Positions 13,414 to 53,728 are shown, counted from the first letter of the stretch. The stretch is DNA of 64,000 bases from an uncultured Eubacteriales bacterium (GCA_934446675.1 CAKSEL010000007.1:445-64444), one strand, 5' to 3'. The notes: a model not told the origin generated them from the sequence alone. Program-made: numbers and translations.

Positions 13414-13415
13414 AT

Positions 13416-14109: not shown

Positions 14110-14176
14110 CAGACCTTTGCAAAGCTGTTTTCCGCACAGTCTTACGGAAAAGCAGGTAAAGGTCTGTTTTTATTTT
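14110..14176 (+). terminator. Rho-independent terminator (long hairpin)
   Basis: CAGACCTTT (14110-14118) pairs with AAAGGTCTG (14158-14166) around an inner stem, then TTTTTATTTT. Confidence 0.6.
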
Positions 14177-14259
14177 GCAAAAATACGGCAAAGTGCATAA
14201 TTTGTCCTACGAAAGCAAATAATAGCTGCGAACATAAAAAATGAAAGGAAGAAGATACA

Positions 14260-15609: not shown

Positions 15610-15633
15610 GCGTCAATAAACGTATAACCTTGC

Positions 15634-15671
15634 TTACCCGGCTTATTTTATCTGAGCCGGGTAATTTTTTT
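15634..15671 (+). terminator. Rho-independent terminator
   Basis: TTACCCGGCT / AGCCGGGTAA 10-bp stem followed by T8. Confidence 0.8.
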
Positions 15672-15985
15672 GCGCCGTAATCAAAACATATAAAAACTAT
15701 TGAAAAACCTCTTACTTTGCGGCACGATATAATCAATTGTAATTGTTTTCGCGGACAAAACAAAGCTTTCCTCCGAGAAAAACTACATATCTTCTGACAG
15801 GCTCAAAAAGAGCATAAACACCGTGGATTCGGAGAATTCAGAAAACCGAAATTCCGACGAAAAGAGCAGTCACGCGTATAGCATCGTTTCAGCAATCGGA
15901 ACAATTCGTTTGACTTACGATATCTGACAGAACCGTTTATCACACAGAATGGGATCAAGGCTAAGTTTCCAATGTGATAAAGCAA

Positions 15986-17213: not shown

Positions 17214-17966
17214 TTATTTTACCTCCATATGATTAATCATGCTTGCAAGATACCCTGCCCCGAATCCATTGTCGATATTGACCGCAGACACTCCGCTTGC
17301 ACAGGAATTCAGCATAGATAAAAGAGCGGATAGTCCGTTGAATGACGCACCGTATCCGACGCTTGTGGGAACTGCTATTACCGGACAGTCCGCAAGTCCT
17401 CCGATCACACTTGCAAGCGCGCCCTCCATTCCGGCTACGGCAATTATAACGCTTGCGCTCATTATTTCGTCAAGGTGTGACAGCAGCCTGTGCAGTCCGG
17501 CAACGCCGACATCATATAACCGCACAACTTCATTTCCGTGCACTTCCGCGGTAAGCGCAGCCTCCTCAGCCACCGGAATATCGCTTGTTCCGCCAGTTGC
17601 CACAACAATTTTACCGATCCCGTCAGCGTCCGGAATTTTCCCTATGATTCCGATTTTTGACTGTTCATGATAATCAATATCGTATCTTTCGGCTATTTTT
17701 TCGGCAGCTTCCGTATAAAGCCTTGTAACAAGTATGGTCTTCTGCCCGTTTTGCCTCATTTTTTCTATTATCCCTATTATCTGTTCCGGAGTTTTACCGG
17801 CTCCGTATATAACCTCCGGCATACCTTGACGAATATTGCGGTGCAAATCTATTTTAGCATAGCCTATGTCCTCAAACGGTTCTTTTTTCAAAGCCAATAC
17901 AGCGTCGTCAACCAAAATACTCCCGTCGCGTACTTTTTCCAATATTGTTTTTAAACCGGTCTTCAT
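17214..17966 (-). CDS. larB: Nickel-pincer cofactor biosynthesis protein LarB (PurE-like carboxylase/hydrolase)
   Basis: 250 aa. DLHRNIRQGMPEVIYGAGKTPEQI and a PurE-like C-terminal half. ATGA start/stop overlap with larE. Confidence 0.9.
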   Translation of the reverse strand: MKTGLKTILEKVRDGSILVDDAVLALKKEPFEDIGYAKIDLHRNIRQGMPEVIYGAGKTPEQIIGIIEKMRQNGQKTILVTRLYTEAAEKIAERYDIDYHEQSKIGIIGKIPDADGIGKIVVATGGTSDIPVAEEAALTAEVHGNEVVRLYDVGVAGLHRLLSHLDEIMSASVIIAVAGMEGALASVIGGLADCPVIAVPTSVGYGASFNGLSALLSMLNSCASGVSAVNIDNGFGAGYLASMINHMEVK

Positions 17967-18709
17967 TTGCGCACCTCCAAATCAAGCAGAACGCCGGAAT
18001 AATACTTTTTTAATTCCGAAATAATAATTTCACGCTTTTCGAGTACCTGTGCAAGCTGATCGGCAGGTACCTGTATTTTTGCTGAATTTCCCGTTTTTCT
18101 CACTCTGAAATTACTGAATCCGAGAGAAAACAAATAATTTTCCGCCATCTCCGTCGCTCTCAGTTTTTCCTCTGTAATACGTTCGCCTGCCGGAATACGG
18201 GTTGCAAGACAGGCATAGGCCGGCTTATTCCATGTGAACAGCCCGGCTTCTTTTGAAAGCCGGCGAATTTCGCTTTTTGTCAATCCGCACATACGCAGAG
18301 GAGAAAATACGGACAGTTCTTGCAAGGCTTTCATACCGGGACGGTCCTGCGCATCATCAGACGCATTTGTTCCGTCAAGCAAAACTGTAAATCCGTCATC
18401 TGCCGCCTGCTTTTTTATGGTTTCAAATATTGTTTTCTTGCAGTAGTAACAGCGATTGTTCGGGTTAGACGCTGTTTTTTCATCAGCAAGCACATCTATA
18501 TGCAGCGTTTTCATCTCCGCACCAACCTGTTTTGCCAAACGCACGGCGTCCTCGTATTCAAACTGCGGCTGAAAAGCCGATTTTGCATAATATGCGCACA
18601 CTTTTTCCGCATGGAGCTTTGCAAAATAGAAAAGATATGACGAATCGACGCCGCCGGAAAACGCGACCGCAACCTTTGTATGTTCCCTGAAAAAATCTTC
18701 TAAATTCAT
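17963..18709 (-). CDS. larE: ATP-dependent sacrificial sulfur transferase LarE (PP-loop ATPase)
   Basis: Start moved to MNLEDFF (AGGGG 7 nt upstream). PP-loop VAFSGGVDSS and CYYCK motif. Confidence 0.9.
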   Translation of the reverse strand: MNLEDFFREHTKVAVAFSGGVDSSYLFYFAKLHAEKVCAYYAKSAFQPQFEYEDAVRLAKQVGAEMKTLHIDVLADEKTASNPNNRCYYCKKTIFETIKKQAADDGFTVLLDGTNASDDAQDRPGMKALQELSVFSPLRMCGLTKSEIRRLSKEAGLFTWNKPAYACLATRIPAGERITEEKLRATEMAENYLFSLGFSNFRVRKTGNSAKIQVPADQLAQVLEKREIIISELKKYYSGVLLDLEVRK

Positions 18710-18725
18710 ATGATACCCCTGTATT

Positions 18726-18762
18726 AAAAACGGGCAGCTCCGCAAATCATACAGAGCAGCCC
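18726..18762 (-). terminator. Weak hairpin plus U5 between the small membrane-protein genes and larE (possible partial terminator)
   Basis: Minus strand: GGGCTGCTC...GAGCTGCCC (one mismatch) followed by gTTTTT, in the 62-nt gap before larE. Confidence 0.3.
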
Positions 18763-19088: not shown

Positions 19089-19502
19089 TTATATGCCCTC
19101 TTTTGCGGTTTCCGGTACACTTAACGCTTTCTTTTCGATAACAGTGCTTACCGCAACCATGCCGAGCCACACCGCTGTGACAATAGCAGACATCAATACT
19201 CCCGTGCTTCCGATTTCTGCGAGCATCTCAGCTGTTTCTCCGGTTTTGACTGCCGTAAGAAACGGAAAGAATGGAACAACTTCACCGTGCCATACATGCT
19301 CAAAAGCAAGCAGTGCAGAACCTCCCCACAGCATTTTGTTGAGCCAGCCGAGTTTTACGGAAAACGGAATCTTTACCGTCTCCACCGTTGTTTTTTCGGA
19401 AAGAGAAATACTTTCGTTTTCTCTCTTTTCCTGTGATTTAACCGCCTTTGCCGCGATTGTTGTGATGACTGCTTCAGCAGCCGGAGCAATAAAACATGCC
19501 AT
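19089..19502 (-). CDS. Small 3-TM membrane protein, unknown family, His/Glu-containing loop
   Basis: 137 aa from MACFIAPAAEAV (AGGAGG 8 nt upstream). Motif KMLWGGSALLAFEHVWHGE parallels that of the downstream gene. Its stop abuts the next start. Confidence 0.6.
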   Translation of the reverse strand: MACFIAPAAEAVITTIAAKAVKSQEKRENESISLSEKTTVETVKIPFSVKLGWLNKMLWGGSALLAFEHVWHGEVVPFFPFLTAVKTGETAEMLAEIGSTGVLMSAIVTAVWLGMVAVSTVIEKKALSVPETAKEGI

Positions 19503-19670
19503 GATCAAAAACCTCCTGAAATTTCCGGCGAAAATATATAAAAAAGAAGGCATAACGGCTCTCTTCTGAAAAACCGCATACCTTCATAGTACACATAATC
19601 GCCTGTATTGATTTAAAATTTTGTTAATATCCGTATGCTTCGGCATACATATCGGAATTCATATTCCGAT
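19503..19670 (-). promoter_or_regulatory. Structured ~165-nt 5' leader (candidate riboswitch/attenuator) of the membrane-protein/lar genes
   Basis: Two perfect hairpins sit at the predicted 5' end: ATCGGAAT/ATTCCGAT at 19651-19670 and GTATGC/GCATAC at 19633-19648. An intrinsic terminator lies at 19540-19585, upstream of the RBS. Confidence 0.45.
19540..19585 (-). terminator. Leader-internal rho-independent terminator
   Basis: Minus strand: GAAGGUAUGCGG-loop-CCGUUAUGCCUUC followed by U6, ending 38 nt before the start codon at 19502. Confidence 0.55.
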
Positions 19671-24849: not shown

Positions 24850-24933
24850 ATTAACCTACCTCCGCGACTTAACTTTTGCCTTATCTTAACATAACAGGCT
24901 GAAAAAAACAATCATTATATTTGACAAAAACTA

Positions 24934-24962
24934 TTGCAATATTGACACTTTTATGGTATAAT
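24934..24962 (+). promoter_or_regulatory. Promoter of the AraC gene (possibly giving a leaderless mRNA)
   Basis: TTGCAA (24934-24939), 17-nt spacer ending in TGG, TATAAT (24957-24962). The ATG at 24969 begins 7 nt after the -10 and has no SD. Confidence 0.5.
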
Positions 24963-24968
24963 AGAACC

Positions 24969-25775
24969 ATGAAAAATACAGTTTTTAAGGAACATCAGGA
25001 GTTCAGTTTAAAAAAGCCCTGGGAATACAAAATTCATACTTTTCCTACCGACAGAGTCGTTCCGCCGCACTATGCCGAAACGCTCGAAGTGCTTATTTAC
25101 GACAATCTTATCGGTGAAACGCACATAGGAGGTCACCGTCTGAAGCTCGGCGGAAAACAGGTCTTTTTTGTAGGGCCGAATGTTGTTCACGCCATGTATT
25201 ACAAGAAAAACGACGGCAAAAACATAACTCTTAAAATAGATACGGAATTGCTCAAGCCCATATTCGATATTTCCGCCTATCTCGACTATTACGGAACAAA
25301 CTTCACCAATCTTCCTATGGAAATATTTGATTTTGATAAGATAATCGAAATTTCCGAGGTGTTTCTGAACGGAGAAATATGCGATGTTATACCGGCAATT
25401 ATCAGACTGTTTTCTATCCTGATTTCACATTCCGACGATTACAGTCATTTTCCTTTTCCGCAGAGCAACGATATGCTTGCGATTATCTCCTGGACCGAAA
25501 ACAATTTCAGCAGAAAAATAACGCTTGAAGAAGTTGCAAAGCAAGTCGGTTACAGCAGGCATTATTTATGCCGCAAATTTAAGAACGAAACCGGCACGAC
25601 TTATTTATCATATCTCAATTTTTTGCGTATCAGCAATGCCTGCAAGCTTCTGAAAGCAGGTCAGCCGATACCGGTAGTCTCCGAAAGCTGCGGTTTTGAA
25701 GATATATCGTATTTCACACAGCTTTTCAAGAAAATTGTCGGAGTTACGCCGAAAAAATACACGCAGCTTCACTGA
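24969..25775 (+). CDS. AraC family transcriptional regulator
   Basis: Start at MKNTVFKEH. C-terminal HTH KQVGYSRHYLCRKFKNETG...ESCGFEDISYFTQLFKKIVGVTP. Confidence 0.85.
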   Translation: MKNTVFKEHQEFSLKKPWEYKIHTFPTDRVVPPHYAETLEVLIYDNLIGETHIGGHRLKLGGKQVFFVGPNVVHAMYYKKNDGKNITLKIDTELLKPIFDISAYLDYYGTNFTNLPMEIFDFDKIIEISEVFLNGEICDVIPAIIRLFSILISHSDDYSHFPFPQSNDMLAIISWTENNFSRKITLEEVAKQVGYSRHYLCRKFKNETGTTYLSYLNFLRISNACKLLKAGQPIPVVSESCGFEDISYFTQLFKKIVGVTPKKYTQLH

Positions 25776-26102: not shown

Positions 26103-28874
26103 TTAACCCTCGGTTGACTGTGAAGCAAGCCACTCATTATACTTATCTATAAGCGGCTGTGCTGCAGCTTTTCTTTCATCATCAAGGCTGTTCAGTATTT
26201 CAAGAATGGAAACGCTCATAGGTGTGCCGTACTGATACTCGCCGTCAACAAGCGACCATGCACGTACGGTAAACTTGTCGCCGTAGTGAGCCATCGGAAT
26301 GTTTACAAGTACACAGCTGAATACGTCTGCCTGAAGATCAGTATCAGGACCAAGCTTAAGGTCGGTGCCTGTTTCCTTGTTATAGTTAGCGTGTGAAATA
26401 AACGGCGTTACCACACCTTCCGGCTTAAATGTGTGAGTAAGTTCAGCATTATCAGCCGCCTTGAGAACGTCGGTGCGCGCTACGATAAAGCCGTATTCTG
26501 TAAGCTTTTCGTCGTTTTTGTAATCATATCCAATATAACCCTTGAATCTGAGACCGCTCTTGTTGTCAATGACATTTCCTTCGGTGTCTTTCTGAACGCG
26601 GATTGAGGTAACGTCCTTTGGATCGGTTGCGTCATTGTACCAGTGCGGTGCATACTTGGTATCAGCTGTCGGATCATAGGGAGTAAACGCAACGGAGAAC
26701 TCGTCGAACAATATTTTAGTGGTAACAGAAGATGTACCGATGTAGAACATCATATTCTGAAGCATTCCGTCGGTATATTCTTTTTCAATTACAGGACTGT
26801 TCTCTACTTTGTTGTTTTCGGTATATCTGATGTAAAGAGTTCCGTCCTTGTCAAATACTTCAATGTCGAACAATACGGTTATATATCCGTCGTCGTCGGC
26901 AATATACTGATTTACCCAGCCGGCAGATGTGCTGTATTTGCCATTTTTATCGTTAAGAACGAAACTTCCTGCGTCCAAGTCGGTTTTAAGAACAACTTTA
27001 AACTGATATGTTCCGACTTCCTTGATGCCGGAGAGTCCGTAAAAACCGAGTGAATGATACTGCTGCGCACTCTTGTCTGCAAATTCAAGAACATTTCTTC
27101 CGTTTACGGTTTTGGTTGTTAAAACTTTAGCATCGTTGAAATCCGCTGCGGCAAGACCGCCGTCATATCCGGGCGCTTTATATGAGAAATCATGAATAAT
27201 ACCCCCGGCTGTTGAAGGCACGGTATGGATATATCTTTTTCCGAAGTTTTCTCTTAAAACAATATTCGTTTCACTTACGGTGAACTGAATTTCCGAAACA
27301 CCGTCAGATACATAATATGCTTCGCCGGGCAGATAATCCTCGCCGTCAATTTCAAACGAAGGGTTGTAATCAAGTCCAAGCTCTGCCGCTGTCGGGAGAA
27401 TGTATCTGCCTTCAAAGCATTCTGCAGTTTCGCTGAAAACAGTTGTGCTGCCGGAAACAAATTTTGCGGTTACTGTTTTGGGTGCTTCATATATTATGCT
27501 CAGATCGTCAACATATACAACAACATTTGCTCCGCTCGGTGCGAAATATACCTGCCATGTTGCGTCGCCGAATGCCGAATCAGCTTCAAAGCTGTTAACA
27601 TTACCGCTTGAATTAGATATTGTATAAGTATACTTGCCGCTGCTGTCTTTGCTTACATCGACAGTCCAGCCAAGTGTGTGCCATACGTCAGCCGGCAAAG
27701 AATTAATACGTTCCATGCTAGGTGCTTTCGAGCCGAGTGCCTGTGTCCACAGTCTGCCGGCTAAATTTCCGCTTTCCATCTTGGCATTAACATTTATATG
27801 ATAAGTACCGGGTTCTGTAAAGTTAAGGTGAAGGAATTTAAATCCTACGCATGAATATCTACCTTTGCTGCCGGTAATTTTCGCAACGGTATTGCCTTCA
27901 TCATCAACGGTTGTAATATAAAGACCGTTATTGCCGGGTTCATCACCGTTTACTATTGATACATTTCCCAAACCGTCATACGAAGGTTTCGCGGTAAAAT
28001 CTTTACCTGCGGTATTGAAATCATGACCGGCGCCGATAGTGTCAAATCCTTCGTATACAAGAAGATTTGTTTCGCCGACAGTCAGCTCAATATCTTCAAA
28101 ATTCAGAGGATAAGAAGCTCCGGGTAAATATTCTGCGCCGCTGCTTGTTATATATACCGGATAGAACTCGGTACCAAGTTCGGATTTGGAGGGAAGCTTG
28201 AACGAAGTCTGATCGGGTTCTACATAAACTTCCTTAAGAACGGATCCGTCAGAATTCTTATATGTTACCTTGTAAAACGGCATTACAGATATGTCGTCAT
28301 AATAATCGGTATACGGTGCTGAAGCGTGCTGGACATGTGTTCCAATCTTTTCGTCTGCATTAAGGACGTCAAGGTCAGCGTAATATGTTGTCCAGCCATT
28401 GCTCGTGCTTGCTGCAGTTGTACCGACTTGCTGTGTAGTTGTTCCATTATTACGACGCACTAATAAACCTGTGTTTTTGACTGTAGACTTATACTTGAAC
28501 GTCACACGCACCTTTCTGTCAACGACAGTACCGGCGGGCCAGAAAATAACACCGTTATGCCATACATTAGTAGATGCATTTGATGCAGATATTACCGAAT
28601 TATCACCGTCCATAACAAGTTCAACATCATCGTCCCATCGGGAAACATAATTGCCGAGACCTAAATCAAAGGTATACGGGGTGCCGTCGCCGGTAAGAAG
28701 ATTAATTCCGGGAACAGCCTCGGACATGAGATCAGCATTTTCAGAAACACGCGCGTCATTCTGAACGGAAAACTCGTCGCTTGTTTCTACGTCAACAGTC
28801 TCAAGAGCAAAGGCATTTACAGAGGACGCAACCATTAACATTGAAACGGCGAGTGCAAGGAATTTGCTTTTCAT
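26103..28874 (-). CDS. Secreted multi-CBM-like glycan-binding protein (paralogous to 39640-43080)
   Basis: 923 aa. Signal peptide MKSKFLALAVSMLMVASSVNAFA. Repeated CBM4/9/22-like beta-sandwich modules ending in YYDDISV / VYVDDLSI / ILFDEFSV. The C-terminal SGLRFKG...EYGFIVAR module is shared with the 1146-aa protein. Confidence 0.75.
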   Translation of the reverse strand: MKSKFLALAVSMLMVASSVNAFALETVDVETSDEFSVQNDARVSENADLMSEAVPGINLLTGDGTPYTFDLGLGNYVSRWDDDVELVMDGDNSVISASNASTNVWHNGVIFWPAGTVVDRKVRVTFKYKSTVKNTGLLVRRNNGTTTQQVGTTAASTSNGWTTYYADLDVLNADEKIGTHVQHASAPYTDYYDDISVMPFYKVTYKNSDGSVLKEVYVEPDQTSFKLPSKSELGTEFYPVYITSSGAEYLPGASYPLNFEDIELTVGETNLLVYEGFDTIGAGHDFNTAGKDFTAKPSYDGLGNVSIVNGDEPGNNGLYITTVDDEGNTVAKITGSKGRYSCVGFKFLHLNFTEPGTYHINVNAKMESGNLAGRLWTQALGSKAPSMERINSLPADVWHTLGWTVDVSKDSSGKYTYTISNSSGNVNSFEADSAFGDATWQVYFAPSGANVVVYVDDLSIIYEAPKTVTAKFVSGSTTVFSETAECFEGRYILPTAAELGLDYNPSFEIDGEDYLPGEAYYVSDGVSEIQFTVSETNIVLRENFGKRYIHTVPSTAGGIIHDFSYKAPGYDGGLAAADFNDAKVLTTKTVNGRNVLEFADKSAQQYHSLGFYGLSGIKEVGTYQFKVVLKTDLDAGSFVLNDKNGKYSTSAGWVNQYIADDDGYITVLFDIEVFDKDGTLYIRYTENNKVENSPVIEKEYTDGMLQNMMFYIGTSSVTTKILFDEFSVAFTPYDPTADTKYAPHWYNDATDPKDVTSIRVQKDTEGNVIDNKSGLRFKGYIGYDYKNDEKLTEYGFIVARTDVLKAADNAELTHTFKPEGVVTPFISHANYNKETGTDLKLGPDTDLQADVFSCVLVNIPMAHYGDKFTVRAWSLVDGEYQYGTPMSVSILEILNSLDDERKAAAQPLIDKYNEWLASQSTEG

Positions 28875-34213: not shown

Positions 34214-37200
34214 TTACTGTTTTACTTTAAGCCGTATTGTCTTTACTTCAAACGCCCTGAAATTAAGCTTAATTGTATCGTCTGTCACCGCAACACATTC
34301 CGCGTCCTCCTCAAGCATATTTGTTAAATATGCCTCTTTGACCGCAAATCCGAGTTTCACGCTGCACATTGTGTAGTTGTTTGTTTCCTCGGCAAGTCTG
34401 ATAATAATATCACCTTTCCCATCCTCAGAAATTTTCGCGGCGGTAAGAACGACATTGGGTTGTGAAATGCTGAGCGCGGACTGTTTGCCTGCATATCCCG
34501 GAACAACCTTCACCGGGCAGTTAAGCTCAAATGCAGCATTTACAATATTACTGTTATAAAATGTTCCGCAGAAAGGCATGAAACAATAAGTAAAGCGCTG
34601 TATTCCCATATCTGCGTTAAGCGCGGGATTCTGCGGAGCTTTAAGCAGCGTAAGACTCATTCGTCCTCCGTCTGCGCTTATACCGTATTTGCAGTTGTTG
34701 AGAATTGCGGCTGCTCTGTTGGATTCTGCAAGTGCAGACCACTTATGCTGGCAAACTTCAAATCTGTCGGCATCATACTTTCTGTTTCTATGCGTAGGTC
34801 TTTTTACAAATCCGTACTGCGTTTCCGAGATAAGCTCTTCGGTATTGAAGTTGGTATCAAAATCGACTTTAAGCAGCTTATGACGTTCTTTCCAGTCTAT
34901 CTGAGTATCAAATTCAATCGCTCTTGAACCCTTGCGCAATGTAACTTTCTGTACAAGCGTCGAATTGTTGATTTCACGCTTTATTACCAATGAAGATGCA
35001 AGCGTTCCGGACTGAATACTCTCTATTTTTGCCGGTTCTGCAAGTTTTACTTCATTGTTTTGATATATGCTGTCGATATCCCATGCATCATGCGCCGCAG
35101 TCTGATCCTCATACATACGCAGGCGGTTCGATCTGCCGGACAAAAACTCAATTCCCGTCTGTTTGTCCACTACGCTTGAAAGCTCGCCGTTTTCATTAAA
35201 CTCTGCACGGACAAGATCATTCTCGAGGATCGGTTTTGTTCCTGAGCTGACTGCATTTGCCTTTTCTTTGCCCAAAACAAACGACGCATATCCGCATGAC
35301 GGAACATCAACAGCGGCAAAAGTGCCGTTTGCGTCGGTTTCGCATTCATATGCCTTGCCGTCCGAAGCACAGATTGAAGTATAACCTTCGGGAAGTTTGA
35401 TATAGGCTTTTCTGTCCCACGAAAGCGAGTTGAAAACCGTAATAACTCCGTCCTTTGTTTCGGAAACGGTTTCAAGAACATCTTTGGTTATATTTTCCGC
35501 CTTTTCCGCAACTTCAGAAAGCTCGGATTCGGCTCTTTCATATACCTCGGCAATCGACGAACCCGGAAGAATATCGTGGAACTGATTGAACAGTACAGTT
35601 TTCCACAGCGGATCGGTCTTTTCTTTTGTATCCTGCCTTAAAAATGCCGACCAAAGCTCTGCGTCTCTCAGTTCATTTTCGCACTTTCTGTTCAGCAGCT
35701 TTGTCTTTGCCTGTGATGTGAATGTTCCCCTGTGAAGCGCATAGTAAAGCTCTCCGACATAGGTTTTGTCTATCTCACATTCATTCTCAACATCATGGAA
35801 AAATTTATTCGGAGAGGCCTGAATTACTTTAGGCATTCCCTCAAGATCATGCTCACGCTTGAGCTGTTCGTAATAAAATCTCGTTGCTCCTCCGCCGCCG
35901 TCGCCGAAGCCGTAAGGATATAATCTGTACGGAATATTGTCCCTCTCGCTGTTAAATCCCCAGTGGACCTTTGTCTGGCTGGGATATGTGCCGTTTGCAT
36001 AGCCGCGTATTATGTTGCAAAGCACTTCGGAGCCGTCGTTTCCTTTCCAATTAAACATACTGTAAGGGAATACATCTCCGCCGTTTATAAGCCACATAAG
36101 CTTTGCGCTCATAAAATACTTAATTCCGCACCCTTTAAGGATCTGAGGGAAAGCGCCGCTGATTCCGAACGTATCCGGGAGCCACAGTATCTCGCTGTCT
36201 ACGCCGAATTCATTTTTCATAAACTTTTTGCCGAAAACAAACTGACGGATAATACTCTCGCCCGCAGGAATATTTGCGTCGGATTCAACCCACATTCCGC
36301 CCTCGACAACAATATTTCCGCTTTTGACCGCCTGCTTTACCCTTTCGTAAAGCTCCGGGTAATTGTTTTTGACGGTTTCAAGGATCCATGCCTGCGACTG
36401 AATATACTTGCAGTCGTCGAACTCATTTATAAGTTCAAGCTGATTACCTATTGTTCTGGCGCATTTTCTTGTTGTTTCATTTACCGTCCACAGCCACTCC
36501 AAGTCAAGGTGAGAATGGCTTATCGCATACATGGTCGGCACTGTCGGACCGTTATGGCAATCAAACAGCGGTTTTAATATCTCGCGCGCCTGCTTCACAT
36601 TTTCGGCGAATTCGTCATAAGGCAATTCAAGATCGACAAAGTCGGCAATTTTTCTTATTGCCTTTTCTATCTTTGCTCTGCGCAAAGACGTTTCCTCCTG
36701 GCACTTTGATAAATCAACCAGCACCTCAATGTCTACATAAAGCTGGAAAACATCATCGCGGAATATACCGTAGGTTCCGTTTGAAACGCATTTCTGCGTA
36801 ACATCTTCGGGAAAAGGCTTTATATTAAGTTCCGGAATAAGCGCAGTGTAATGCATGACGTCCTTAATCATTTCATCACCGTGTCCGGCATAAACCTCAG
36901 CGGCTATATCAAACGTTTCGCCTGCCTTGGCAGATGCGGACAGCATTATTTCCTTATGTGCATGATCAAGCGCGCCGACCACTCTGCCGTTTACATAAAC
37001 CGTGCTTTCTACAAGGTCAGCCTTAAAGCATATACGTTTTCCCTCGCACTCTTTCGGAACGGTTATCTGTGTAAAGAACCAGCCGTACTCCCATTTGCGT
37101 CCCCATCTGAGCCCCTGAGGAAGTTTTTGCCTGTCATGCTTTACGGCGTCTTCATACGATAACCTGTCGTATGTAAAAAAGCCCTCAAACTCCGTCGTTC

Positions 37201-37276
37201 CGACAGGCACGTAAAAACGTGACGGAAGCTTGCCCCGAAGCCGGTCAATTTTCTTTACATATTCTTCGCTAAACAT
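34214..37276 (-). CDS. Glycoside hydrolase family 38 alpha-mannosidase (cytoplasmic)
   Basis: 1020 aa. GH38 metal/catalytic block YAISHSHLDLEWLW, FNQFHDILPGSSI, and a full-length layout typical of bacterial GH38. No signal peptide. Confidence 0.9.
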   Translation of the reverse strand: MFSEEYVKKIDRLRGKLPSRFYVPVGTTEFEGFFTYDRLSYEDAVKHDRQKLPQGLRWGRKWEYGWFFTQITVPKECEGKRICFKADLVESTVYVNGRVVGALDHAHKEIMLSASAKAGETFDIAAEVYAGHGDEMIKDVMHYTALIPELNIKPFPEDVTQKCVSNGTYGIFRDDVFQLYVDIEVLVDLSKCQEETSLRRAKIEKAIRKIADFVDLELPYDEFAENVKQAREILKPLFDCHNGPTVPTMYAISHSHLDLEWLWTVNETTRKCARTIGNQLELINEFDDCKYIQSQAWILETVKNNYPELYERVKQAVKSGNIVVEGGMWVESDANIPAGESIIRQFVFGKKFMKNEFGVDSEILWLPDTFGISGAFPQILKGCGIKYFMSAKLMWLINGGDVFPYSMFNWKGNDGSEVLCNIIRGYANGTYPSQTKVHWGFNSERDNIPYRLYPYGFGDGGGGATRFYYEQLKREHDLEGMPKVIQASPNKFFHDVENECEIDKTYVGELYYALHRGTFTSQAKTKLLNRKCENELRDAELWSAFLRQDTKEKTDPLWKTVLFNQFHDILPGSSIAEVYERAESELSEVAEKAENITKDVLETVSETKDGVITVFNSLSWDRKAYIKLPEGYTSICASDGKAYECETDANGTFAAVDVPSCGYASFVLGKEKANAVSSGTKPILENDLVRAEFNENGELSSVVDKQTGIEFLSGRSNRLRMYEDQTAAHDAWDIDSIYQNNEVKLAEPAKIESIQSGTLASSLVIKREINNSTLVQKVTLRKGSRAIEFDTQIDWKERHKLLKVDFDTNFNTEELISETQYGFVKRPTHRNRKYDADRFEVCQHKWSALAESNRAAAILNNCKYGISADGGRMSLTLLKAPQNPALNADMGIQRFTYCFMPFCGTFYNSNIVNAAFELNCPVKVVPGYAGKQSALSISQPNVVLTAAKISEDGKGDIIIRLAEETNNYTMCSVKLGFAVKEAYLTNMLEEDAECVAVTDDTIKLNFRAFEVKTIRLKVKQ

Positions 37277-43386: not shown

Positions 43387-44241
43387 TCAAACCTGCAAAA
43401 CGGTAATTTTGTGTACCGCGTTGTATGTCTGTCCCTTGTCCAGTTTTATTATGCCTTCTTTTTTTGTAATATCATAATCCGAACCGACAATATCCTGTAT
43501 TCCGTCCCACGGCTCAAGACATATATACGGGGCATTCTGTTTATGCCAGATAAGGAAATACGGAGCAAAATCAAAATCAATCTTTACAGCCCTTGTGCCC
43601 GTCCTGCTTCTCAGAATTGCGGACTTTGATTTAAGTTCTTTGAAAACAAGGGCGTCTACCGTAAAGTATTTTTCGTAAAGCGGAAGTACATTACAGTCTT
43701 TTATGATCGGCAAAAGCTGATCTGAAAGAAGGTTTCCGTAAAGCACATACGAATTAAGCGTTTCGGGCTGAGGAAATACAACATCGTAATTTTCTATACC
43801 TTCCGGTGTGTAATATCCCTCGTGCGCTCCTATGGAAAAGTACATTGCGCCCTTTGATTTATTATCTACACGATACGAAATACCGAGAGACGTATTTTTC
43901 AGCTCATACGTTATTCTCAGCTCGTAGTCAAAGGGATAGCAACGCTTTGTTTCATCATTTGACTTGTGTACGAGAACTACTTTTTTGTCGTCTGCATATT
44001 CGGTAACGAAAGAAACCGTACTGCCGAAACCGTGCTTGGGCAAAACATATTCTTTTCCGTTATACGTGTACTTATCGTTCTTCAGTCCGCCGCATATCGG
44101 AAATAATAGCGGAGAAGATCTGTTCCATATCTCTTTGCACGACTGCCATATATACTCTTTTTCGTCGCAGACCATGCTTTTCAGTTCCGCACCGAGTTCA
44201 TTTATCTTTACTTTTACTCTGTCGTTTTGTAAAGTCAGCAC
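43387..44241 (-). CDS. Aldose 1-epimerase family protein (mutarotase-like)
   Basis: Start set at GTG 44241 (GAGGTGG 6 nt upstream). LTLQNDRVKVKINELGAELKSM and FPICGGL...YNGKEY.LPKHGF are typical of LacX/aldose-epimerase-family proteins. Confidence 0.8.
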   Translation of the reverse strand: MLTLQNDRVKVKINELGAELKSMVCDEKEYIWQSCKEIWNRSSPLLFPICGGLKNDKYTYNGKEYVLPKHGFGSTVSFVTEYADDKKVVLVHKSNDETKRCYPFDYELRITYELKNTSLGISYRVDNKSKGAMYFSIGAHEGYYTPEGIENYDVVFPQPETLNSYVLYGNLLSDQLLPIIKDCNVLPLYEKYFTVDALVFKELKSKSAILRSRTGTRAVKIDFDFAPYFLIWHKQNAPYICLEPWDGIQDIVGSDYDITKKEGIIKLDKGQTYNAVHKITVLQV

Positions 44242-44317
44242 AAACTTCCACCTCACTAAATTTACCGACGCTGCTTTGTTGCCGCCGTAACAAGAGCAAA
44301 AAGCAGATCATCTGTAA

Positions 44318-45289
44318 TTATTTTTTCAAGACCTCAAGTATTTCATGTATTGTTGCGCTTCCGGTCGTACCTATCTTTTTTATAGTAACTGCACTTGCCG
44401 CATTAGCGAAGAGCGCTGCTTTTTCAGGTTCAAAACCGCTTGCCCAGAACGTCCCGAACGCCGCCATAAACGTATCTCCGGCACCGCAGAAATCTATCGG
44501 AGGTTCAACGTCAAACGCCGGAATTTCGTAAATCGCCGTGCCGTCCGAAACAAGGCAGCCCTTACCGCCGAGCGTTACTATTGCGGGTTTTTGATTTTTC
44601 TGAGAAAGAAGCTTTGCCGCAGAGTGCAGATCGTCTGTTTCCACAGCGCGCGCCGCCTCAACCTCATTGGGTTTTACCGTGACATTTGAATACAGGCTTA
44701 CCCGGTCGCGGCTGTCAACGATTATCTTCATGCCGCTTTTTCCGAGTTCGGAAATTTCCTGCCTGAGCTTATCCGTGATACAGCCGCACTTCATCTGGTC
44801 GCACACGCATAAAACGTCTATTTTATCTTTAATTGCCAAAAGTGCTTTTAAAATGCTTTCTTCGGTTTCATCGCTGATTTTTTCGTAATTCTCAAAATCA
44901 AGGCGCGGATCTTCATATTTTACATCGGATATTCCGCAGCGTATCGGTTTTATATAGGTGTTTGTAAATCTGCCGTCGCATTTTACAAGCCCTTCCGTAT
45001 CAATTCCGCTAAATGCAAGCTGTTCCGAAAGCGCCTTGCCGCGCCAGTCATTGCCGATACAGCCTATTGCATAAACCTTGCCGACGCCGAGACTTGACAC
45101 ATTCACTGCAACATTTCCGGCGCCTCCGGCAGACATTCTTTCTTCGACAACCGGCAGAGGATAGTGCGGTGTTTCACGGGAAAGCTCGCTTTTCTTCATA
45201 TCGGCAGTCCAGTATACATCAAGACAGAAATCGCCTATTATTCCGACTTTCAGGTTCTTGATTTGCCCGAAATCCTTTTCAGTCCACAT
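44318..45289 (-). CDS. PfkB-family sugar(-phosphate) kinase, RfaE domain-I-like
   Basis: 323 aa. KVGIIGDFCLDVYW...PVVEERMSAGGAGNVAVNVSSLG closely parallels the N-terminus of heptose-7-phosphate kinase (RfaE/HldA). C-terminal GAGD motif. Overlaps the upstream gene by 11 nt. Confidence 0.75.
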   Translation of the reverse strand: MWTEKDFGQIKNLKVGIIGDFCLDVYWTADMKKSELSRETPHYPLPVVEERMSAGGAGNVAVNVSSLGVGKVYAIGCIGNDWRGKALSEQLAFSGIDTEGLVKCDGRFTNTYIKPIRCGISDVKYEDPRLDFENYEKISDETEESILKALLAIKDKIDVLCVCDQMKCGCITDKLRQEISELGKSGMKIIVDSRDRVSLYSNVTVKPNEVEAARAVETDDLHSAAKLLSQKNQKPAIVTLGGKGCLVSDGTAIYEIPAFDVEPPIDFCGAGDTFMAAFGTFWASGFEPEKAALFANAASAVTIKKIGTTGSATIHEILEVLKK

Positions 45290-46262
45290 TAAAATTCCAT
45301 CCTTTCTTTTTCAGCTCGTCGTAGAGTGCGGGAATAGTCTGCTTATGATCTCCGACAAAGTGGAATCCCATACCGTTAAGGCTGACGGGACGGTTCACGA
45401 TATTTTTTCTCGGACGGTAATAATAGTTAGGATCGTCATAACCTATTTTGCATTTGTAATTGCCGAGATTTATCAAATCAAAGTTTGCGGTAGTAATATC
45501 AAATGTATCGTATCCGAGATTTCTCGAAATAGACAGCGCCTTTAAGAATACCTCAGGTCCGATAACGCTTGAACCGAAGTTCATATAAACTCCTTTGTCA
45601 AGATGTGCTACCGAATAGCACATTCTGTGAAAATCGGTTCCGCTTGCAGCGCCTATCGCAGAAAAATCAACAATCGGATGCTGATGAATTATATCGGTTC
45701 CGAGAGCAATGTGATATGTAGCCGTAACATTGTGCTTATATGCCTGATACAGCACGCAATCGTCCTTGTACGGGAATTTTTCGGGATTTTCGTCGATATA
45801 TCTTGCAAGGCTCTCGCCGTATCCCCAGCCTTCTCTCGCACCTTTTTGAATTGCCTCATTCATCCATCTGCCTGTCTGCTCCCACATACCGAACGAGCCG
45901 TCCTCGATTGCCGTGGGGACATCTTCGGATGTTCCGCCGAGATACGCCAGTTCAAAATCGTGTATCGAACAAGCACCGTTTCCGGAAATATGCGTTATGA
46001 GTCCGGATTTTATAAATGCAATAAGATAACGCGACAGACAGTTCTTTATAACGTGCGCACCCTGCGACCAGATAACGGTTCTGCCGTTTCTGCGCGCCTC
46101 AAGTATTCTGTCAACAAGTGTATCAAAATTTGCATCTTTGTTTTCCCACGGCATTGATTCGGAAACGCCGGGAGTCAGAAGTGTGTCTATTCTTACAAGA
46201 TTGTGACGTTCGGCCGCCGAATACGTTTTGATGTTGTCAAATTTAAGTTCATTGTACTTCAT
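45279..46262 (-). CDS. Conserved protein, deoxyhypusine-synthase-like fold (function unknown)
   Basis: 327 aa with GGAGGG 8 nt upstream. ISGNGACSIHDFELAYLGG and HIALGTDIIHQH resemble the TTAGGVEEDLIK and ILGGGVVKHH blocks of deoxyhypusine synthase. The gene call is solid; the family call is tentative. Confidence 0.5.
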   Translation of the reverse strand: MKYNELKFDNIKTYSAAERHNLVRIDTLLTPGVSESMPWENKDANFDTLVDRILEARRNGRTVIWSQGAHVIKNCLSRYLIAFIKSGLITHISGNGACSIHDFELAYLGGTSEDVPTAIEDGSFGMWEQTGRWMNEAIQKGAREGWGYGESLARYIDENPEKFPYKDDCVLYQAYKHNVTATYHIALGTDIIHQHPIVDFSAIGAASGTDFHRMCYSVAHLDKGVYMNFGSSVIGPEVFLKALSISRNLGYDTFDITTANFDLINLGNYKCKIGYDDPNYYYRPRKNIVNRPVSLNGMGFHFVGDHKQTIPALYDELKKKGWNFNVD

Positions 46263-47055
46263 TGTCTTTTCCCTCCATAAGCGACATTATTTTACCGAGT
46301 TCAAGGTAATCTCCGATTATTACGTCGGCTCCTGCCTTTATAAGACGTTCTCTTTTCTTGGCGTTTACCCCGCACAGCTTTTGCTCGTCGCTGGCAACGC
46401 CTATTGTCAGCGCTCCGGCATTGTTTCCGAGTGCAATTTCCACCTTTCCGTCTCCGGCAACGCAAAGCTCATCGCCCGAATATCCGCATTTTTCCAAGAG
46501 TTCGGACATTACCTTTTCCTTTGAGCAATCCTCGCATCTTTCCGGGGCGCCGCACAGCTCGTCAAAGTATTTGTCTATTCCGAGAAGCTTTGCTTCTTTT
46601 ACAACGTCGGCATGATCCGTGCCGCTGGCAACAAATATTTTAATTCCTGCTTCTTTCAGACTCTTCAATAGCTTTTCCGATCCGGCTACAAGAAATTCCT
46701 CAGGCTTTGCCGTTCCTTCTTCAAGAGACTTTTTCTTGTCGGCAAGCATTTCCATAAGCATATCGTTGTAGTCGGCTTTGTAATCCCACATATCCTTGGC
46801 TTTGCCCGTTCTTTCAAGCGATTGCTGCACAAGCCACTTCATCTGTTTGACAGTCTGTATTCCGGTTGAATAATCTATGTATTCATCAACCGTCTTTTCA
46901 AGCTCCGCATCATCTTTTCCGTTTGAAAGAACCTTCAGCATGAGCTTTCGCATTACACCTTCCCAGCCGCAGCGCAATGTGGAAAAAGTGCCGTCAAAAT
47001 CAAACAGCACCGCCTTTATTTTTCTCCCTTTTTTTATATCCTTGCAAAATTCCAT
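46249..47055 (-). CDS. HAD-superfamily hydrolase/phosphatase
   Basis: Start at MEFCKD (AAGGTG 6 nt upstream). Motif I VLFDFDGTF, motif IV GDGKVEI. 14-nt overlap with the downstream gene. Confidence 0.8.
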   Translation of the reverse strand: MEFCKDIKKGRKIKAVLFDFDGTFSTLRCGWEGVMRKLMLKVLSNGKDDAELEKTVDEYIDYSTGIQTVKQMKWLVQQSLERTGKAKDMWDYKADYNDMLMEMLADKKKSLEEGTAKPEEFLVAGSEKLLKSLKEAGIKIFVASGTDHADVVKEAKLLGIDKYFDELCGAPERCEDCSKEKVMSELLEKCGYSGDELCVAGDGKVEIALGNNAGALTIGVASDEQKLCGVNAKKRERLIKAGADVIIGDYLELGKIMSLMEGKDNEVQ

Positions 47056-47080
47056 ATCTATCACCTTTTATACCTTATTT

Positions 47081-47098
47081 TGTGCTCAGTATAGCACA
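47081..47098. promoter_or_regulatory. Inverted repeat overlapping the predicted -10 of the HAD-operon promoter
   Basis: TGTGCT-N6-AGCACA. On the minus strand the spacer contains TGcTATACT (an extended -10). Confidence 0.35.
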
Positions 47099-47198
47099 GC
47101 CTTACATGGTTTTCATGTTTGATTTTGCTTTTTGTATTGCATTTTTTGATGTTTTGTGTATAATAGTAAAAAGAAGCAACATAACAGGGAGACAATGC

Positions 47199-48032
47199 AT
47201 GGAAAAGAAATATACGAAAATACTGCTTGATAATAAAGCAGGTGCTATGAAAGAAGTATTTATAAGAAAACACGCTTTGAAAAACTATGTTCTTCACCGT
47301 CACGACTGTTTTGAATTCGAGCTTGTAATAAGCGGTTCGGCACGGCACACGGTAAACGGAGAAACAAACACCATTTCACGCGGCGACATGTATCTGATCC
47401 TCCCGACGGATATACACGGTCTGGAGCTTGAAGAAGAAGGCGAACTCTATAACATAATGTTCCGCGAAAGTATCATAAGCAAGGACATTCTTCTCGAATT
47501 TCTTAACTTCAACTCAAATACCGTACATTTATCGGACGAAGATTTTACGCGGATCTGTTTTCTGATTGAAAGTGCCATAAAGGAATCTACGGAAAAAAGG
47601 CGTTTTGCATCGCTGTTTATGCACAATCTGATAGAGTGCATTTTTATCACATTTCTGCGCAACCAGGCACCGAATGTAAAGAAAACAATACCGCAGCAAG
47701 GCGCCGTTCACACTGCTCTTATCTACATTCAGTCGCATTACACCTCAAATCTTTTCCTGCATGATGTCGCTGCACACGTTTTTTTAAGCGACAGCTATTT
47801 CAGCAGACTTTTTCACATAAAAACCGGAGTAACATTCAAGAAATATTTATCAAATCTGCGTCTTGTATACGCAACAAAGCTGCTGCGTTCTTCTTCGCTT
47901 TCGGTTACGGAGATATGCTTTGACTGCGGCTTTACATCATTCTCGCATTTTTTGCGTTCTTTCCGTGAAATGTACGGAACTTCTCCCGGAGAGTACAGAA
48001 ACAACACCGCTCTGAACAAAACCGAGAAATGA
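47199..48032 (+). CDS. AraC family transcriptional regulator
   Basis: Start at MEKKYTKILL (AGGGAG 7 nt upstream). The promoter TTGCAT-16-TATAAT lies upstream. C-terminal HTH ICFDCGFTSFSHFLRSFREMYGTSP. Divergent from the HAD operon. Confidence 0.85.
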   Translation: MEKKYTKILLDNKAGAMKEVFIRKHALKNYVLHRHDCFEFELVISGSARHTVNGETNTISRGDMYLILPTDIHGLELEEEGELYNIMFRESIISKDILLEFLNFNSNTVHLSDEDFTRICFLIESAIKESTEKRRFASLFMHNLIECIFITFLRNQAPNVKKTIPQQGAVHTALIYIQSHYTSNLFLHDVAAHVFLSDSYFSRLFHIKTGVTFKKYLSNLRLVYATKLLRSSSLSVTEICFDCGFTSFSHFLRSFREMYGTSPGEYRNNTALNKTEK

Positions 48033-52808: not shown

Positions 52809-53728
52809 TTGAAAAATATAATAACTTTAGTCGGCGGAGCTTATTCGGCTGAAATAAACTTAAGCAGAGGTGCAAACTGCATAAGTCTCAGAAATTCCGA
52901 ATATAATGCGAAAATTCTGCGTGAGCCGGATTTTTCGGCTGAATTGGACAATCCGTATCTTTACGGAATGCCGATTCTGTACCCCGTAAACAGAATAGAA
53001 AACGGAAAATTCGTTTTTGAAAACAGACAATATTCTTTTCCGATAAACGAACCAAAGACAAATTGTCATATTCACGGTTTTGTACATGAAACTCAATTTG
53101 ACGCGGTGCAGGTTAACGAAAGCTGCGTAAACTGCAGCTATGAGGGACAGTTTGCCGATTGTAAACAAAAATTCAGAATCGAATTGTATTATGAAATATC
53201 CGATAAAGGTCTTTTGCAAAAAACAACAATAACCAATTTATCCGATAAAAATATGCCTGTTTTTTAGGATTTCATACCACCTTTAATGTCCCATTTATAA
53301 ATAATTCAGATGCAAAAAACATAAGAGTTCGTGTTGATAATGATTTAGAAGTGCAAAGAAATACGGACACGTATCTCCCGACCGGAAAACTTCCTGATCC
53401 CGACGATGTTACACAAAGTCTTAAAGACGGAAATTTCGTTTCGCACGGCAGACCTATAAGCCGCCATTACAGAGCAGGGGCATCAGGGGCAATGGAAATA
53501 TATGATGTTAAAAACAAGCTAAAAGTTGTTTATGAAAATGATAAAAAGTTTGGCTGGAGATTGATATATAACGGTAACGGTGAAGATTATATATGCCTTG
53601 AACCTCAGACCTGCATGGTTAACTGTCAAAATTCCGGGCTTGACAGAGAATTTACGGGTTTTGACTATATAAAGCCCGGATCATCAAAGGAATATGTGTC
53701 GAAAATTTATATAAATAAAATGCAATAA
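52809..53728 (+). pseudogene. Aldose 1-epimerase family gene interrupted by a frameshift in a T6 run
   Basis: ORF 52809-53267 (YGMPILYPVNRIENGKF...HIHGF) ends ...MPVF*. The family continues in the next frame as LGFHTTFNVPF from 53264 and on into ORF 53351-53728. One extra T at 53260-53265 would restore a single reading frame. Confidence 0.75.

Follow-up and report, generated by a model that had tools for sequence, protein, structure and literature searches.

What does a protein with the fold of deoxyhypusine synthase (DHS) do between a sugar kinase and a phosphatase? The question is raised by a 64,000-nucleotide (nt) stretch of DNA from an uncultured Eubacteriales bacterium (GCA_934446675.1 CAKSEL010000007.1:445-64444), here called the window, with all coordinates counted from its first letter. 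Four genes on its minus strand encode a HAD hydrolase, a 327-amino-acid (aa) protein, a PfkB-family kinase and an aldose-1-epimerase-family (mutarotase-like) protein, and an AraC-family regulator is encoded divergently on the plus strand (Table 1). A preliminary description made from the sequence alone had proposed this layout, and Pfam searches recovered the expected HAD, PfkB, Aldose_epim and AraC families. On balance, we read the four genes as one operon under AraC-type control encoding a sugar-phosphate conversion route, in which the 327-aa protein, a member of the GSU2086 family, would act as a hidden-redox epimerase, probably nickel-pincer dependent, on sugar phosphates made by the kinase.

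Family and fold of the 327-aa protein

The 327-aa protein matches NCBIfam model NF052581, the GSU2086 family, with 389.8 bits against a cutoff of 250 (E = 9.8e-117), and the match spans profile positions 2-300 of 301. The preliminary description had allowed for a hit to a well-characterised, unrelated family; the only family assignment we obtained is to GSU2086, itself uncharacterised, and among the publications searched none ascribes a function to it or connects it with nickel. In a search of 5.8 billion sequences, 7997 of the 8000 scored candidates were significant, with the closest 120 all at least 71% identical, and representatives of 50%-identity clusters were matched in 1974 cases at E<1e-3, 1236 at E<1e-10 and 353 at E<1e-30. 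GSU2086 proteins from distant Firmicutes retain 70-80% identity.

Two blocks of this protein had been likened to DHS, and the motifs quoted then (ISGNGACSIHDFELAYLGG and HIALGTDIIHQH here, KVGIIGDFCLDVYW and GGAGNVA in the kinase) are all present in the translations. The likeness in fold stands: an AlphaFold model built with 68 homologues (pLDDT 96.5, pTM 0.93) was aligned by Foldseek against PDB structures of DHS, of the C-terminal ornithine-cyclodeaminase domain of ArgZ/AgrE and of the archaeal LOR/SDH-type protein 3c2q, at TM scores of 0.45-0.58 and identities of 12-16%, the top matches being the DHS entries 7cmc, 1roz and 1dhs (TM 0.5-0.58, probability 1.00). Membership of the DS family does not stand, since a Pfam search gave no match to DS (PF01916) and a weak one to ArgZ-like_C_2nd, and relatives of the protein reach at most 25.8 bits on PF01916, below its gathering score of 27. 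A simple sequence search against PDB chains returned a chance nanobody match only. The GSU2086 family profile matches ArgZ (2.2e-7), AgrE (5e-7), 3c2q (1e-5) and, at greater distance, DHS (7cmc, 2e-4), and all of these have in common with the family an NGA..HD[FI]E motif, the same stretch that the preliminary description had flagged.

As judged from these profiles and the predicted structure, the 327-aa protein appears DHS-like in fold without being a deoxyhypusine synthase, and its nearest relatives by sequence appear to be domains of the cyclodeaminase type (ArgZ/AgrE/3c2q). To our knowledge, the DHS, ArgZ, AgrE and 3c2q-type relatives all carry out redox-neutral reactions on a bound nicotinamide-type cofactor. 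No homology to LarA/DUF2088 was found in Pfam and NCBIfam profile searches of the protein. The model for ornithine cyclodeaminases dependent on nickel-pincer adenine dinucleotide (NPAD), NF052526, matched only residues 43-109 and, at 14.8 bits (E = 0.0096), fell far short of its 440-bit cutoff, which seems to reflect a distant superfamily relation rather than membership.

Sugar-phosphate partner enzymes

The N terminus of the kinase had been said to track domain I of the heptose-7-phosphate kinase RfaE, and profile comparison agrees. Alongside a PfkB match (PF00294, 8e-34, 117.8 bits against a gathering score of 25.8), its best NCBIfam family is rfaE_dom_I (TIGR02198), aligned end to end at 3.2e-50 with 171 bits, below the cutoff of 345; kinases of Firmicutes-type cassettes score 171-184 bits on this model. 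The heptose kinase HldA (4e84) is matched over the full length, residues 9-309 (7.8e-14), and the fructokinase 3hj6 over residues 51-310, leaving the N-terminal 50 residues unmatched. The SIS partners in Firmicutes-type cassettes behave similarly, with 144-147 bits against the gmhA cutoff of 209. Both partners thus score as apparent diverged paralogues of heptose enzymes; the window kinase would be a diverged paralogue of heptose-7-phosphate kinase whose substrate identity cannot be assumed, and we propose that it is an anomeric (C1) kinase.

The HAD protein matches PF00702 (6.6e-15), and all its NCBIfam matches fall far below cutoff, including HAD-IIIA (TIGR01662; 23.5 bits against 44.6) and the beta-phosphoglucomutase models TIGR01990 and TIGR02009 (20-27 bits against 153-189). 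Its model (pLDDT 93.7) has a C1-capped type-I HAD fold, with phosphoglycolate-type phosphatases, phosphonatase and beta-phosphoglucomutase among its structural neighbours. It is therefore described here as a predicted C1-capped phosphatase or phosphomutase, apparently not of the GmhB (HAD-IIIA) type. The beta-phosphoglucomutase structures (TM against the target at most 0.78) ranked no better than the phosphatases, and the fold search does not decide for or against the narrower assignment as a beta-phosphoglucomutase. The fourth protein matches Aldose_epim (PF01263, 1.1e-21) and the structures 3dcd and 3q1n ('galactose mutarotase related enzyme') at 4e-45; an Aldose_epim or DUF4432 partner is also present in related cassettes.

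Recurrence and fusion of the cassette

A scan of one genome per GTDB species with a 14-sequence alignment yielded at least 599 relatives, and the best 80 of these, which were examined, come from Bacillota, Chloroflexota, Nitrososphaerota, Crenarchaeota, Woesearchaeota, Poribacteria, Planctomycetota, Nitrospirota, Omnitrophota, Verrucomicrobiota, Cloacimonadota, Saccharibacteria and Geomonas. Neighbours were counted with profiles built from the window proteins and from fusion proteins, over 3 kb either way of the GSU2086 gene at 86 loci: PfkB was present at 44 of them, SIS at 38 and HAD at 27. The trio of HAD, GSU2086 and PfkB genes occurs in the same or permuted order in dozens of unrelated genomes as well as in fused proteins, and because of this recurrence we regard the association as more than chance. 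The co-conservation on which the preliminary description had made its proposal depend is, accordingly, strong.

The settings of the trio are repetitive too. In the order HAD-GSU2086-PfkB, it recurs next to transporters of the ABC or MFS type, regulators of the ROK or AraC type and GH38 alpha-mannosidases: the locus of a 74%-identical homologue reads solute-binding protein (SBP), two permeases, GH38, HAD, GSU2086, PfkB, SIS_2, Aldose_epim and Metallophos, and that of a 73%-identical homologue MFS, ROK, HAD, GSU2086 and PfkB. GH38 adjoins the cassette at loci L001-L004, L015, L018, L021, L022, L024, L089 and L091, and at L091 it lies inside the operon, between HAD and PfkB.

Dozens of proteins are HAD::GSU2086 fusions. 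Others join the GSU2086 domain to PfkB, to PfkB plus a cytidylyltransferase-like domain (that is, to a whole HldE), to SIS at either end (SIS::GSU2086 and GSU2086::SIS) or to a cytidylyltransferase-like domain alone; one further arrangement is DUF89-phosphatase::cytidylyltransferase-like::GSU2086, and there is one ROK fusion. Judged by domain composition, these fusions appear to span every enzyme class of the nucleoside diphosphate (NDP)-heptose pathway: isomerase, anomeric kinase, phosphatase and nucleotidyltransferase. The preliminary description held that a DHS-fold protein in this position belongs to no known sugar pathway; this has to be given up, as the protein is embedded among paralogues of NDP-heptose enzymes (a GmhA-like SIS protein, an HldE-like kinase and a phosphatase in the role of GmhB). 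Among the open reading frames (ORFs) scanned in the window itself, there is no SIS and no cytidylyltransferase-like domain, both of which occur in related loci.

The smallest version of the cassette, a GSU2086::SIS fusion with PfkB and HAD, is found in Anaerolineae (L093, 10001-13658) and in archaea (L027 and L031). The annotated Anaerolineae unit lies among housekeeping genes, with neither transporter nor glycosidase, and looks biosynthetic, unlike the Firmicutes setting.

The Geobacter operon and its relatives

In Geobacter, the namesake gene stands in an operon of gmhB (GSU2084), hldE (GSU2085), GSU2086 and gmhA (GSU2087). The same electrode-growth defect follows from transposon insertions in hldE (-3.1), GSU2086 (-3.2) and gmhA (-3.7) (PMC5585712). 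The clade at about 40% identity to the window protein, here called lipopolysaccharide (LPS)-type, is found in like company: its 123 neighbours include SIS_2 (14), PfkB (10), HAD (5), KdsB-type cytidylyltransferase (3), GT9 heptosyltransferase (2) and HldC-like cytidylyltransferase (2), and in Geomonas a true HldE (528 bits, cutoff 521) lies alongside. The Epimerase family, which includes HldD, a short-chain dehydrogenase/reductase (SDR), is not among the top neighbour families of this clade, so that the expectation of an SDR-type HldD beside these distant genes was not borne out. This fits a replacement of HldD by the GSU2086 protein and is no proof of it.

The transposon-sequencing list that contains GSU2086 also has GSU0140 ("phosphoribosylaminoimidazole carboxylase-like", PurE-like, 750 bp), the adjoining GSU0141 (hypothetical, 1167 bp), GSU0536 (alpha-hydrolase superfamily, 810 bp) and GSU1279, the nickel transporter nikMN; one fitness pattern is common to GSU0140, GSU0141 and GSU0536 (PMC5585712). 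Judged by annotation and size, these three are candidates for larB, larC and larE, respectively. The authors of that study are silent on lar-like genes and nikMN having the hldE/GSU2086/gmhA defect.

Nickel-pincer cofactor genes near the cassette

The window carries larE, larB and larC on the same strand as the cassette, 26.5 kb downstream (Table 1), within a minus-strand gene array that runs for about 31 kb from the cassette to LarC (47064 to 15986) and is interrupted only by a second AraC gene (24921-25775, plus). Neither LarA/DUF2088 nor an aldo-keto reductase (AKR) was found among the ORFs scanned in the window. About 15% of the genomes that make the nickel-pincer cofactor lack LarA (PMC11796402). 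So far, only two users other than LarA are reported in PMC13524815: NphT, of the AKR fold, and, with reference to Desguin 2025, an ornithine cyclodeaminase with NPAD. We infer that the NPAD-using cyclodeaminase corresponds to NF052526 and groups with the 3c2q-type proteins.

Closer linkage is seen in Bacillales, where five of the eight cassette loci lie beside larB, larC or larE genes, with LarC2 inside the operon in four and the nickel permease NicO in one. In Cohnella sp. REN36 (L028), the operon encodes HAD, the mutarotase-like DUF4432, a tandem GSU2086 protein, PfkB, SIS_2, LarC2 and NicO, and LarC1, LarB and LarE are adjacent and divergent from it; a hidden LarA in this island was considered and rejected, as there is none in the 21-kb locus bounded by TetR and ROK regulators. 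Paenibacillus agaridevorans (L089) has LarC2 directly upstream of HAD, LarC1-LarB-LarE about 6 kb off and two GH38 genes flanking the cassette. P. montanisoli (L094), in which the start of LarC2 overlaps the stop of PfkB, and P. sinopodophylli (L095) have Cohnella-type islands in unrelated neighbourhoods. In Bacillus sp. T33-2 (L088), the cluster ends with LarE-LarB-LarC, encoded on the same strand, and the sequence stops within larC; between cassette and lar genes (13085-15748) lie a zinc alcohol dehydrogenase, an orotidine monophosphate (OMP)-decarboxylase-family protein of the KGPDC/hexulose-phosphate synthase type and an AP_endonuc_2 isomerase/epimerase, which hint at downstream pathway steps in this strain.

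The lar-linked islands thus have at least three architectures in different neighbourhoods. In the four loci whose islands lie fully inside the sequence examined (L028, L089, L094 and L095), no LarA, AKR or other nicotinamide-fold protein is encoded, leaving GSU2086 as the only protein with a nicotinamide-cofactor-type fold in these Bacillales islands. The seven best-scoring named relatives of the Cohnella LarC1 all come from species with a tandem GSU2086 protein. LarC2 bears a CTP site that is essential for LarC activity (PMC13510736); with LarC2 inside the operon, four genomes therefore transcribe a share of the cofactor machinery together with the cassette. Linkage everywhere was rejected: among the loci examined, it is confined to those of Bacillales and, more loosely, the window.

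Conserved residues and tandem proteins

The GSU2086 family has about 20 invariant or near-invariant polar residues (His, Asp, Glu, Lys and Arg). By our reading of the predicted topology, several would lie at strand ends or at the starts of the helices that come next, the cofactor-binding positions of Rossmann-type folds. H70, K73, H101 and H193 occur together in 382 of 497 near-full-length domains, and H70 and K73 are specific to the family, the cyclodeaminases having V and H at these positions.

Bacillales tandem proteins offer an internal comparison. Their N-terminal copy retains every invariant residue. In the C-terminal copy, H70 is replaced by N, K73 by G, D or S, H101 by Q and H193 usually by Q, and D102, E104, T111, E113, H184, H195, D210, K241, R283, R291 and H306 are still present; H70 and H101, near-universal in functional copies, are gone from the degenerate ones. 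In the predicted fold, the lost residues map to three places: directly behind strand 1, within the helix that follows strand 2, and in the loop following strand 180-184. By our reading of the topology, H70, K73, H101 and H193 would be positioned in the putative cofactor crevice. In LarA and NphT, a His of the cofactor site is a nickel ligand and a Lys is the tether; the conserved His/Lys set in the presumed crevice of the GSU2086 family would be a point of likeness to both. The idea that K73 is a covalent tether of the LarA type is weakened by the Arg found at this position in 19 sequences, and a phosphate contact is more likely than an obligatory tether.

The tandem protein, of about 660 aa, is found in Paenibacillaceae and Bacillaceae (L028 at 10001-11989, L087-L091, L094 and L095), and its degenerate C-terminal copy suggests a pseudo-dimer with one active site. 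The clade of the window protein (at least 57% identity) has an extra insertion, NLGNYKCKIGYDDPNYY, at window-protein residues of about 268-284, which is absent from the LPS-type clade. One 723-aa protein (P0126), catalogued from an assembly of the oomycete Aphanomyces euteiches, joins a GSU2086 domain to GH38 fragments; it could be bacterial contamination, a mis-join or a horizontal transfer.

A proposed route and its alternatives

These observations can be assembled into a route whose reaction type, step order, substrate and catabolic direction we infer. GH38 and its neighbours would free a manno-configured sugar, of which the mutarotase-like protein would provide the beta-anomer. The RfaE-like PfkB kinase would phosphorylate the anomeric oxygen, locking the ring as a beta-sugar 1-phosphate or a 1,6- or 1,7-bisphosphate. 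The GSU2086-family protein would then epimerise one carbinol carbon through transient oxidation by a tightly bound hydride-transfer cofactor, followed by re-reduction, and the HAD enzyme would take the phosphate off, or relocate it as beta-phosphoglucomutase does, to deliver a product into central metabolism. The preliminary description had suggested inspecting the protein for an NAD site; the cofactor to consider is probably instead the nickel-pincer nucleotide that LarB, LarE and LarC produce, or the adenine-dinucleotide variant of it. For the window, we favor a catabolic, Leloir-like route for a mannoside-derived sugar because of the GH38 and many other glycosidases, the AraC control and the lack of SIS and nucleotidyltransferase genes among the ORFs scanned. 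Where the genome is of the LPS type, the reaction is most naturally read as an HldD-like step on a heptose phosphate. A broader proposal, which we put forward tentatively and at less than even confidence, is that the GSU2086 family adds a third structural class to the nickel-pincer enzymes, one that would be the first with sugar phosphates as substrates. It would be an unrecognised fifth LPS-heptose enzyme in many phyla outside the enterobacteria (for example Geobacter, Nitrospirota, Planctomycetota and Verrucomicrobiota), possibly replacing HldD. In Firmicutes, Chloroflexi and some archaea it would be central to a Leloir-like route: an anomeric kinase would lock a manno-sugar, allowing the nickel cofactor to epimerise it.

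Several observations weigh against the nickel-dependent route that we prefer. At three Bacillales loci (Neobacillus ginsengisoli, P. pectinilyticus and P. radicis), lar genes are absent from the 10 kb around the cassette, the LarC of P. pectinilyticus being encoded on another contig, and the same holds for about 80 non-Bacillales loci, including one from Saccharibacteria (L043), whose genomes are very small. Homologues of LarA are frequent in Clostridia, so a LarA encoded outside the window may be the client of its lar operon. The AgrE crystal contained NAD+ (6lrg), and NAD use in the superfamily is therefore real; the 19 sequences with Arg at position 73 (from Poribacteria, Planctomycetota and Armatimonadota) speak against an obligatory covalent tether such as that of LarA and NphT. 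The fold comparison of the HAD protein does not tell phosphatase from mutase, and because the window is without SIS and nucleotidyltransferase genes, the input and fate of the sugar are guesses.

One alternative is a cassette of the same composition and the same hidden-redox chemistry running on tightly bound NAD(P)+, as the NAD in DHS and AgrE structures would suggest. The lar and NicO linkage in Bacillales would then reflect co-regulation with another nickel-pincer client or a quirk of the lineage, and the lar genes of the window would serve a LarA encoded elsewhere. The absence of nearby lar genes outside Bacillales, the frequency of LarA in Clostridia, the Lys-to-Arg replacement and the Saccharibacteria member all speak for this alternative. 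It leaves unexplained why LarC2, essential for LarC activity, sits within the cassette operon in four genomes, once followed by NicO, and why no LarA, AKR or other nicotinamide-fold protein accompanies it in the four fully covered loci (that of Bacillus sp. T33-2 ends within larC). The recurrence of such islands in at least three architectures and differing neighbourhoods, and the co-occurrence of LarC1 and tandem GSU2086 proteins at species level, likewise speak against this alternative. We consider NAD(P)+ dependence unlikely, though a serious contender.

A second alternative concerns direction rather than cofactor: the cassette may be biosynthetic here, making a beta-heptose or hexose 1-phosphate, possibly epimerised, for a nucleotide sugar of S-layer or cell-wall glycans, with the proximity of glycosidases incidental. 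All partners are paralogous to the biosynthetic set GmhA/HldE/GmhB, the Gram-negative phyla place the family with true HldE, GT9 and KdsB, the Anaerolineae and archaeal units lie among housekeeping genes without a transporter, and several SLH-domain surface proteins are encoded in the window. Set against this are the lack of any nucleotidyltransferase or SIS/GmhA gene among the window ORFs scanned, the repeated presence, at the flanks of Firmicutes cassettes, of importers (ABC or MFS), of regulators (AraC or ROK) and of GH38 (which in L091 even lies between HAD and PfkB), and the scores of the kinase and SIS paralogues far under the heptose equivalog cutoffs. On this evidence a biosynthetic role in the window is a possibility to which we give a minor share of the probability.

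It is improbable that the 327-aa protein acts on a C-N bond, as an amino-sugar phosphate deaminase, a cyclase or a transaminase-like hidden-redox enzyme. The HD[FI]E motif is common with the cyclodeaminases, and every characterised member of the superfamily known to us (DHS and the AgrE chemistry) oxidises a carbon next to nitrogen; but the loci examined have no aminotransferase, deacetylase or amino-sugar gene alongside the cassette, the constant GmhA-like, HldE-like and GmhB-role partners are enzymes for neutral manno-sugar phosphates, and H70 and K73 set the family apart from the cyclodeaminases. Least probable of all is a non-redox scaffold, regulator or cofactor-independent isomerase organising the kinase and phosphatase: fusions with every partner enzyme and the clearly degenerate copy in tandem proteins are also compatible with it, but the identity across distant Firmicutes is extreme, the near-invariant polar residues include several at predicted cofactor-binding positions, and the degenerate copy is always paired with an intact one.

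Comparison with known systems

The closest metabolic parallel to the route we favor is the NDP-heptose pathway, with which it has in common a GmhA-like SIS protein, an anomeric kinase resembling HldE domain I and a phosphatase step, joined in certain lineages by an HldC-like nucleotidyltransferase; in Geobacter, GSU2086 occupies the slot of the fifth enzyme, within gmhB-hldE-GSU2086-gmhA. The usual fifth enzyme, HldD, is a hidden-redox epimerase. The extra enzyme differs from HldD in having a DHS-like instead of an SDR fold. The window also departs from the pathway in its kinase (171 against 345 bits), as related Firmicutes loci do in their SIS protein (144 against 209), in a C1-capped HAD phosphatase where GmhB is HAD-IIIA, and, among its scanned ORFs, in having neither SIS nor nucleotidyltransferase, in a setting that looks catabolic.

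By sequence profile, the ArgZ/AgrE domain and 3c2q are the closest relatives (2e-7 to 1e-5), with fold and NGA..HD[FI]E motif in common, and the superfamily is reported to include a nickel-pincer user, the NPAD-dependent ornithine cyclodeaminases (Desguin 2025, as cited in PMC13524815). Identity to these proteins, at 12-16%, is low, the GSU2086 family has its own H70 and K73, and its partners are sugar-phosphate enzymes rather than enzymes of arginine or ornithine. DHS shares the overall fold and gives the top Foldseek match, and is set apart by the lack of a PF01916 match, the same low identity and a genomic context without eIF5A or polyamine genes.

With LarA and NphT, the proposal has in common a cofactor made by LarB, LarE and LarC and hydride transfer without net redox change, and with NphT also the logic of discovery, from lar genes without LarA nearby. 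The GSU2086 fold is unrelated to both the lactate racemase superfamily of LarA and the AKR fold of NphT, its proposed substrates are sugar phosphates instead of 2-hydroxy acids or free sugars, and its Lys is sometimes Arg, which makes covalent tethering doubtful. The Leloir pathway (GalM, GalK, GalT/GalE and phosphoglucomutase) is an analogy only, in its sequence of mutarotase, anomeric kinase, hidden-redox epimerase and phosphomutase or phosphatase. No proteins are homologous apart from the generic mutarotase fold; the cassette is without nucleotidyl transfer, and its epimerase would act directly on the sugar phosphate.

Operon layout and other features of the window

The first three genes of the operon had been said to overlap by 14 and 11 nt, which is exact at base level. 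The stop of the HAD gene and the start of the 327-aa gene have 14 nt in common (ATGAAGTACAATGA), with a GGAGGG ribosome-binding site ahead, and the stop of the latter and the start of the kinase gene 11 nt (ATGTGGACTGA), with AAAGGA ahead; a gap of 61 nt separates the kinase gene from the mutarotase-like gene. For the AraC gene, the Met at 47199, read from the translation, is the likely true start. Promoter and terminator scans gave nothing better than shuffled sequence: the single weak sigma-70-like site (minus strand, 47116-47088, TG-extended) showed no enrichment over shuffles.

Table 1. Operon, regulator, cofactor and mannosidase features of the window
Feature	Coordinates	Strand	Remarks
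HAD gene	46249-47064	minus	First operon gene, GTG start; alternative ATG at 47055 gives 46249-47055
GSU2086-family 327-aa protein	45279-46262	minus	Predicted DHS-like/ornithine-cyclodeaminase-like Rossmann fold
PfkB kinase, 323 aa	44318-45289	minus	Apparent paralogue of HldE/RfaE heptose-7-phosphate kinase domain
Aldose-1-epimerase-family (mutarotase-like) protein, 289 aa	43387-44256	minus	Fourth gene
AraC-family regulator	ORF 46977-48032; 47199-48032 from likely start	plus	HTH_18 9.2e-24, HTH_AraC 1.6e-17, AraC_binding 9.2e-09
Divergent intergenic/promoter region, about 134 bp	47065-47198		Between AraC and HAD genes
LarE, sulfur transferase of nickel-pincer biosynthesis	17963-18745	minus	TIGR00268, 265.7 bits against cutoff 150
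LarB-like protein, AIR-carboxylase-like domain	17214-17966	minus	PF00731 2.9e-17; between LarE and LarC; 4-nt overlap with LarE gene
LarC, full-length (LarC1 + LarC2), nickel-inserting cyclometallase	15986-17212	minus	Ni_insertion 1.3e-137; LarC1 212.5 bits against 90; LarC2 136.1 against 50
GH38 alpha-mannosidase	34214-37276	minus	GH38N 3.9e-70, GH38C 6.1e-58; recurrent cassette companion in Firmicutes

The glycan-related neighbours named in the preliminary description, an alpha-mannosidase and a WbsX protein, were recovered as GH38 and as an SLH/WbsX protein, and profile searches added DUF6259, GH127 and GH27 proteins. The wider locus looks catabolic, with its glycosidases, regulators and S-layer-anchored enzyme, rather than devoted to glycan biosynthesis. 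The minus-strand array at 15986-47064 encodes GH38, the SLH/WbsX protein (1701 aa), DUF6259, GH28, GH43, a pair of GDSL esterases and an EamA transporter. It may represent a single large island for glycan utilisation. Two of its ORFs have no Pfam match (26103-28874, minus, 923 aa; and 19089-19553, minus, 154 aa, just upstream of LarE). A 152-aa ORF at 52809-53267 (plus) matches the N-terminal half of Aldose_epim only (2.8e-14) and may be a truncated or frameshifted second mutarotase gene. Farther off, positions 1-2000 have a GC content of 0.57 against 0.41-0.49 elsewhere, with an SLH/Flg_new_2 surface-protein ORF at 1008-2201; a 1189-aa coiled-coil/GLUG protein is encoded beside an 835-aa MMPL-family transporter at 7260-13339 (minus), and a TetR gene lies at 13493-14086, with no connection to the cassette.

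Conclusions

Hidden-redox enzymes of the nickel-pincer type and pathways of the NDP-heptose type are both known kinds of system; what is new is a testable candidate that links the GSU2086 family to both. If the proposal is true, this family would be a further client class for the nickel-pincer cofactor beyond LarA and would account for part of the lar-positive genomes in which LarA is missing. The partner kinase and phosphatase define the class of substrate and thereby give a biochemical handle on a large family. If true, the ADP-heptose pathway would have an unrecognised additional or alternative nickel-dependent step in many phyla, and LPS integrity and the electrode-growth phenotype of Geobacter would be tied to nickel supply. 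For Clostridia of the gut and rumen, an undescribed route for a mannoside-derived sugar is indicated.

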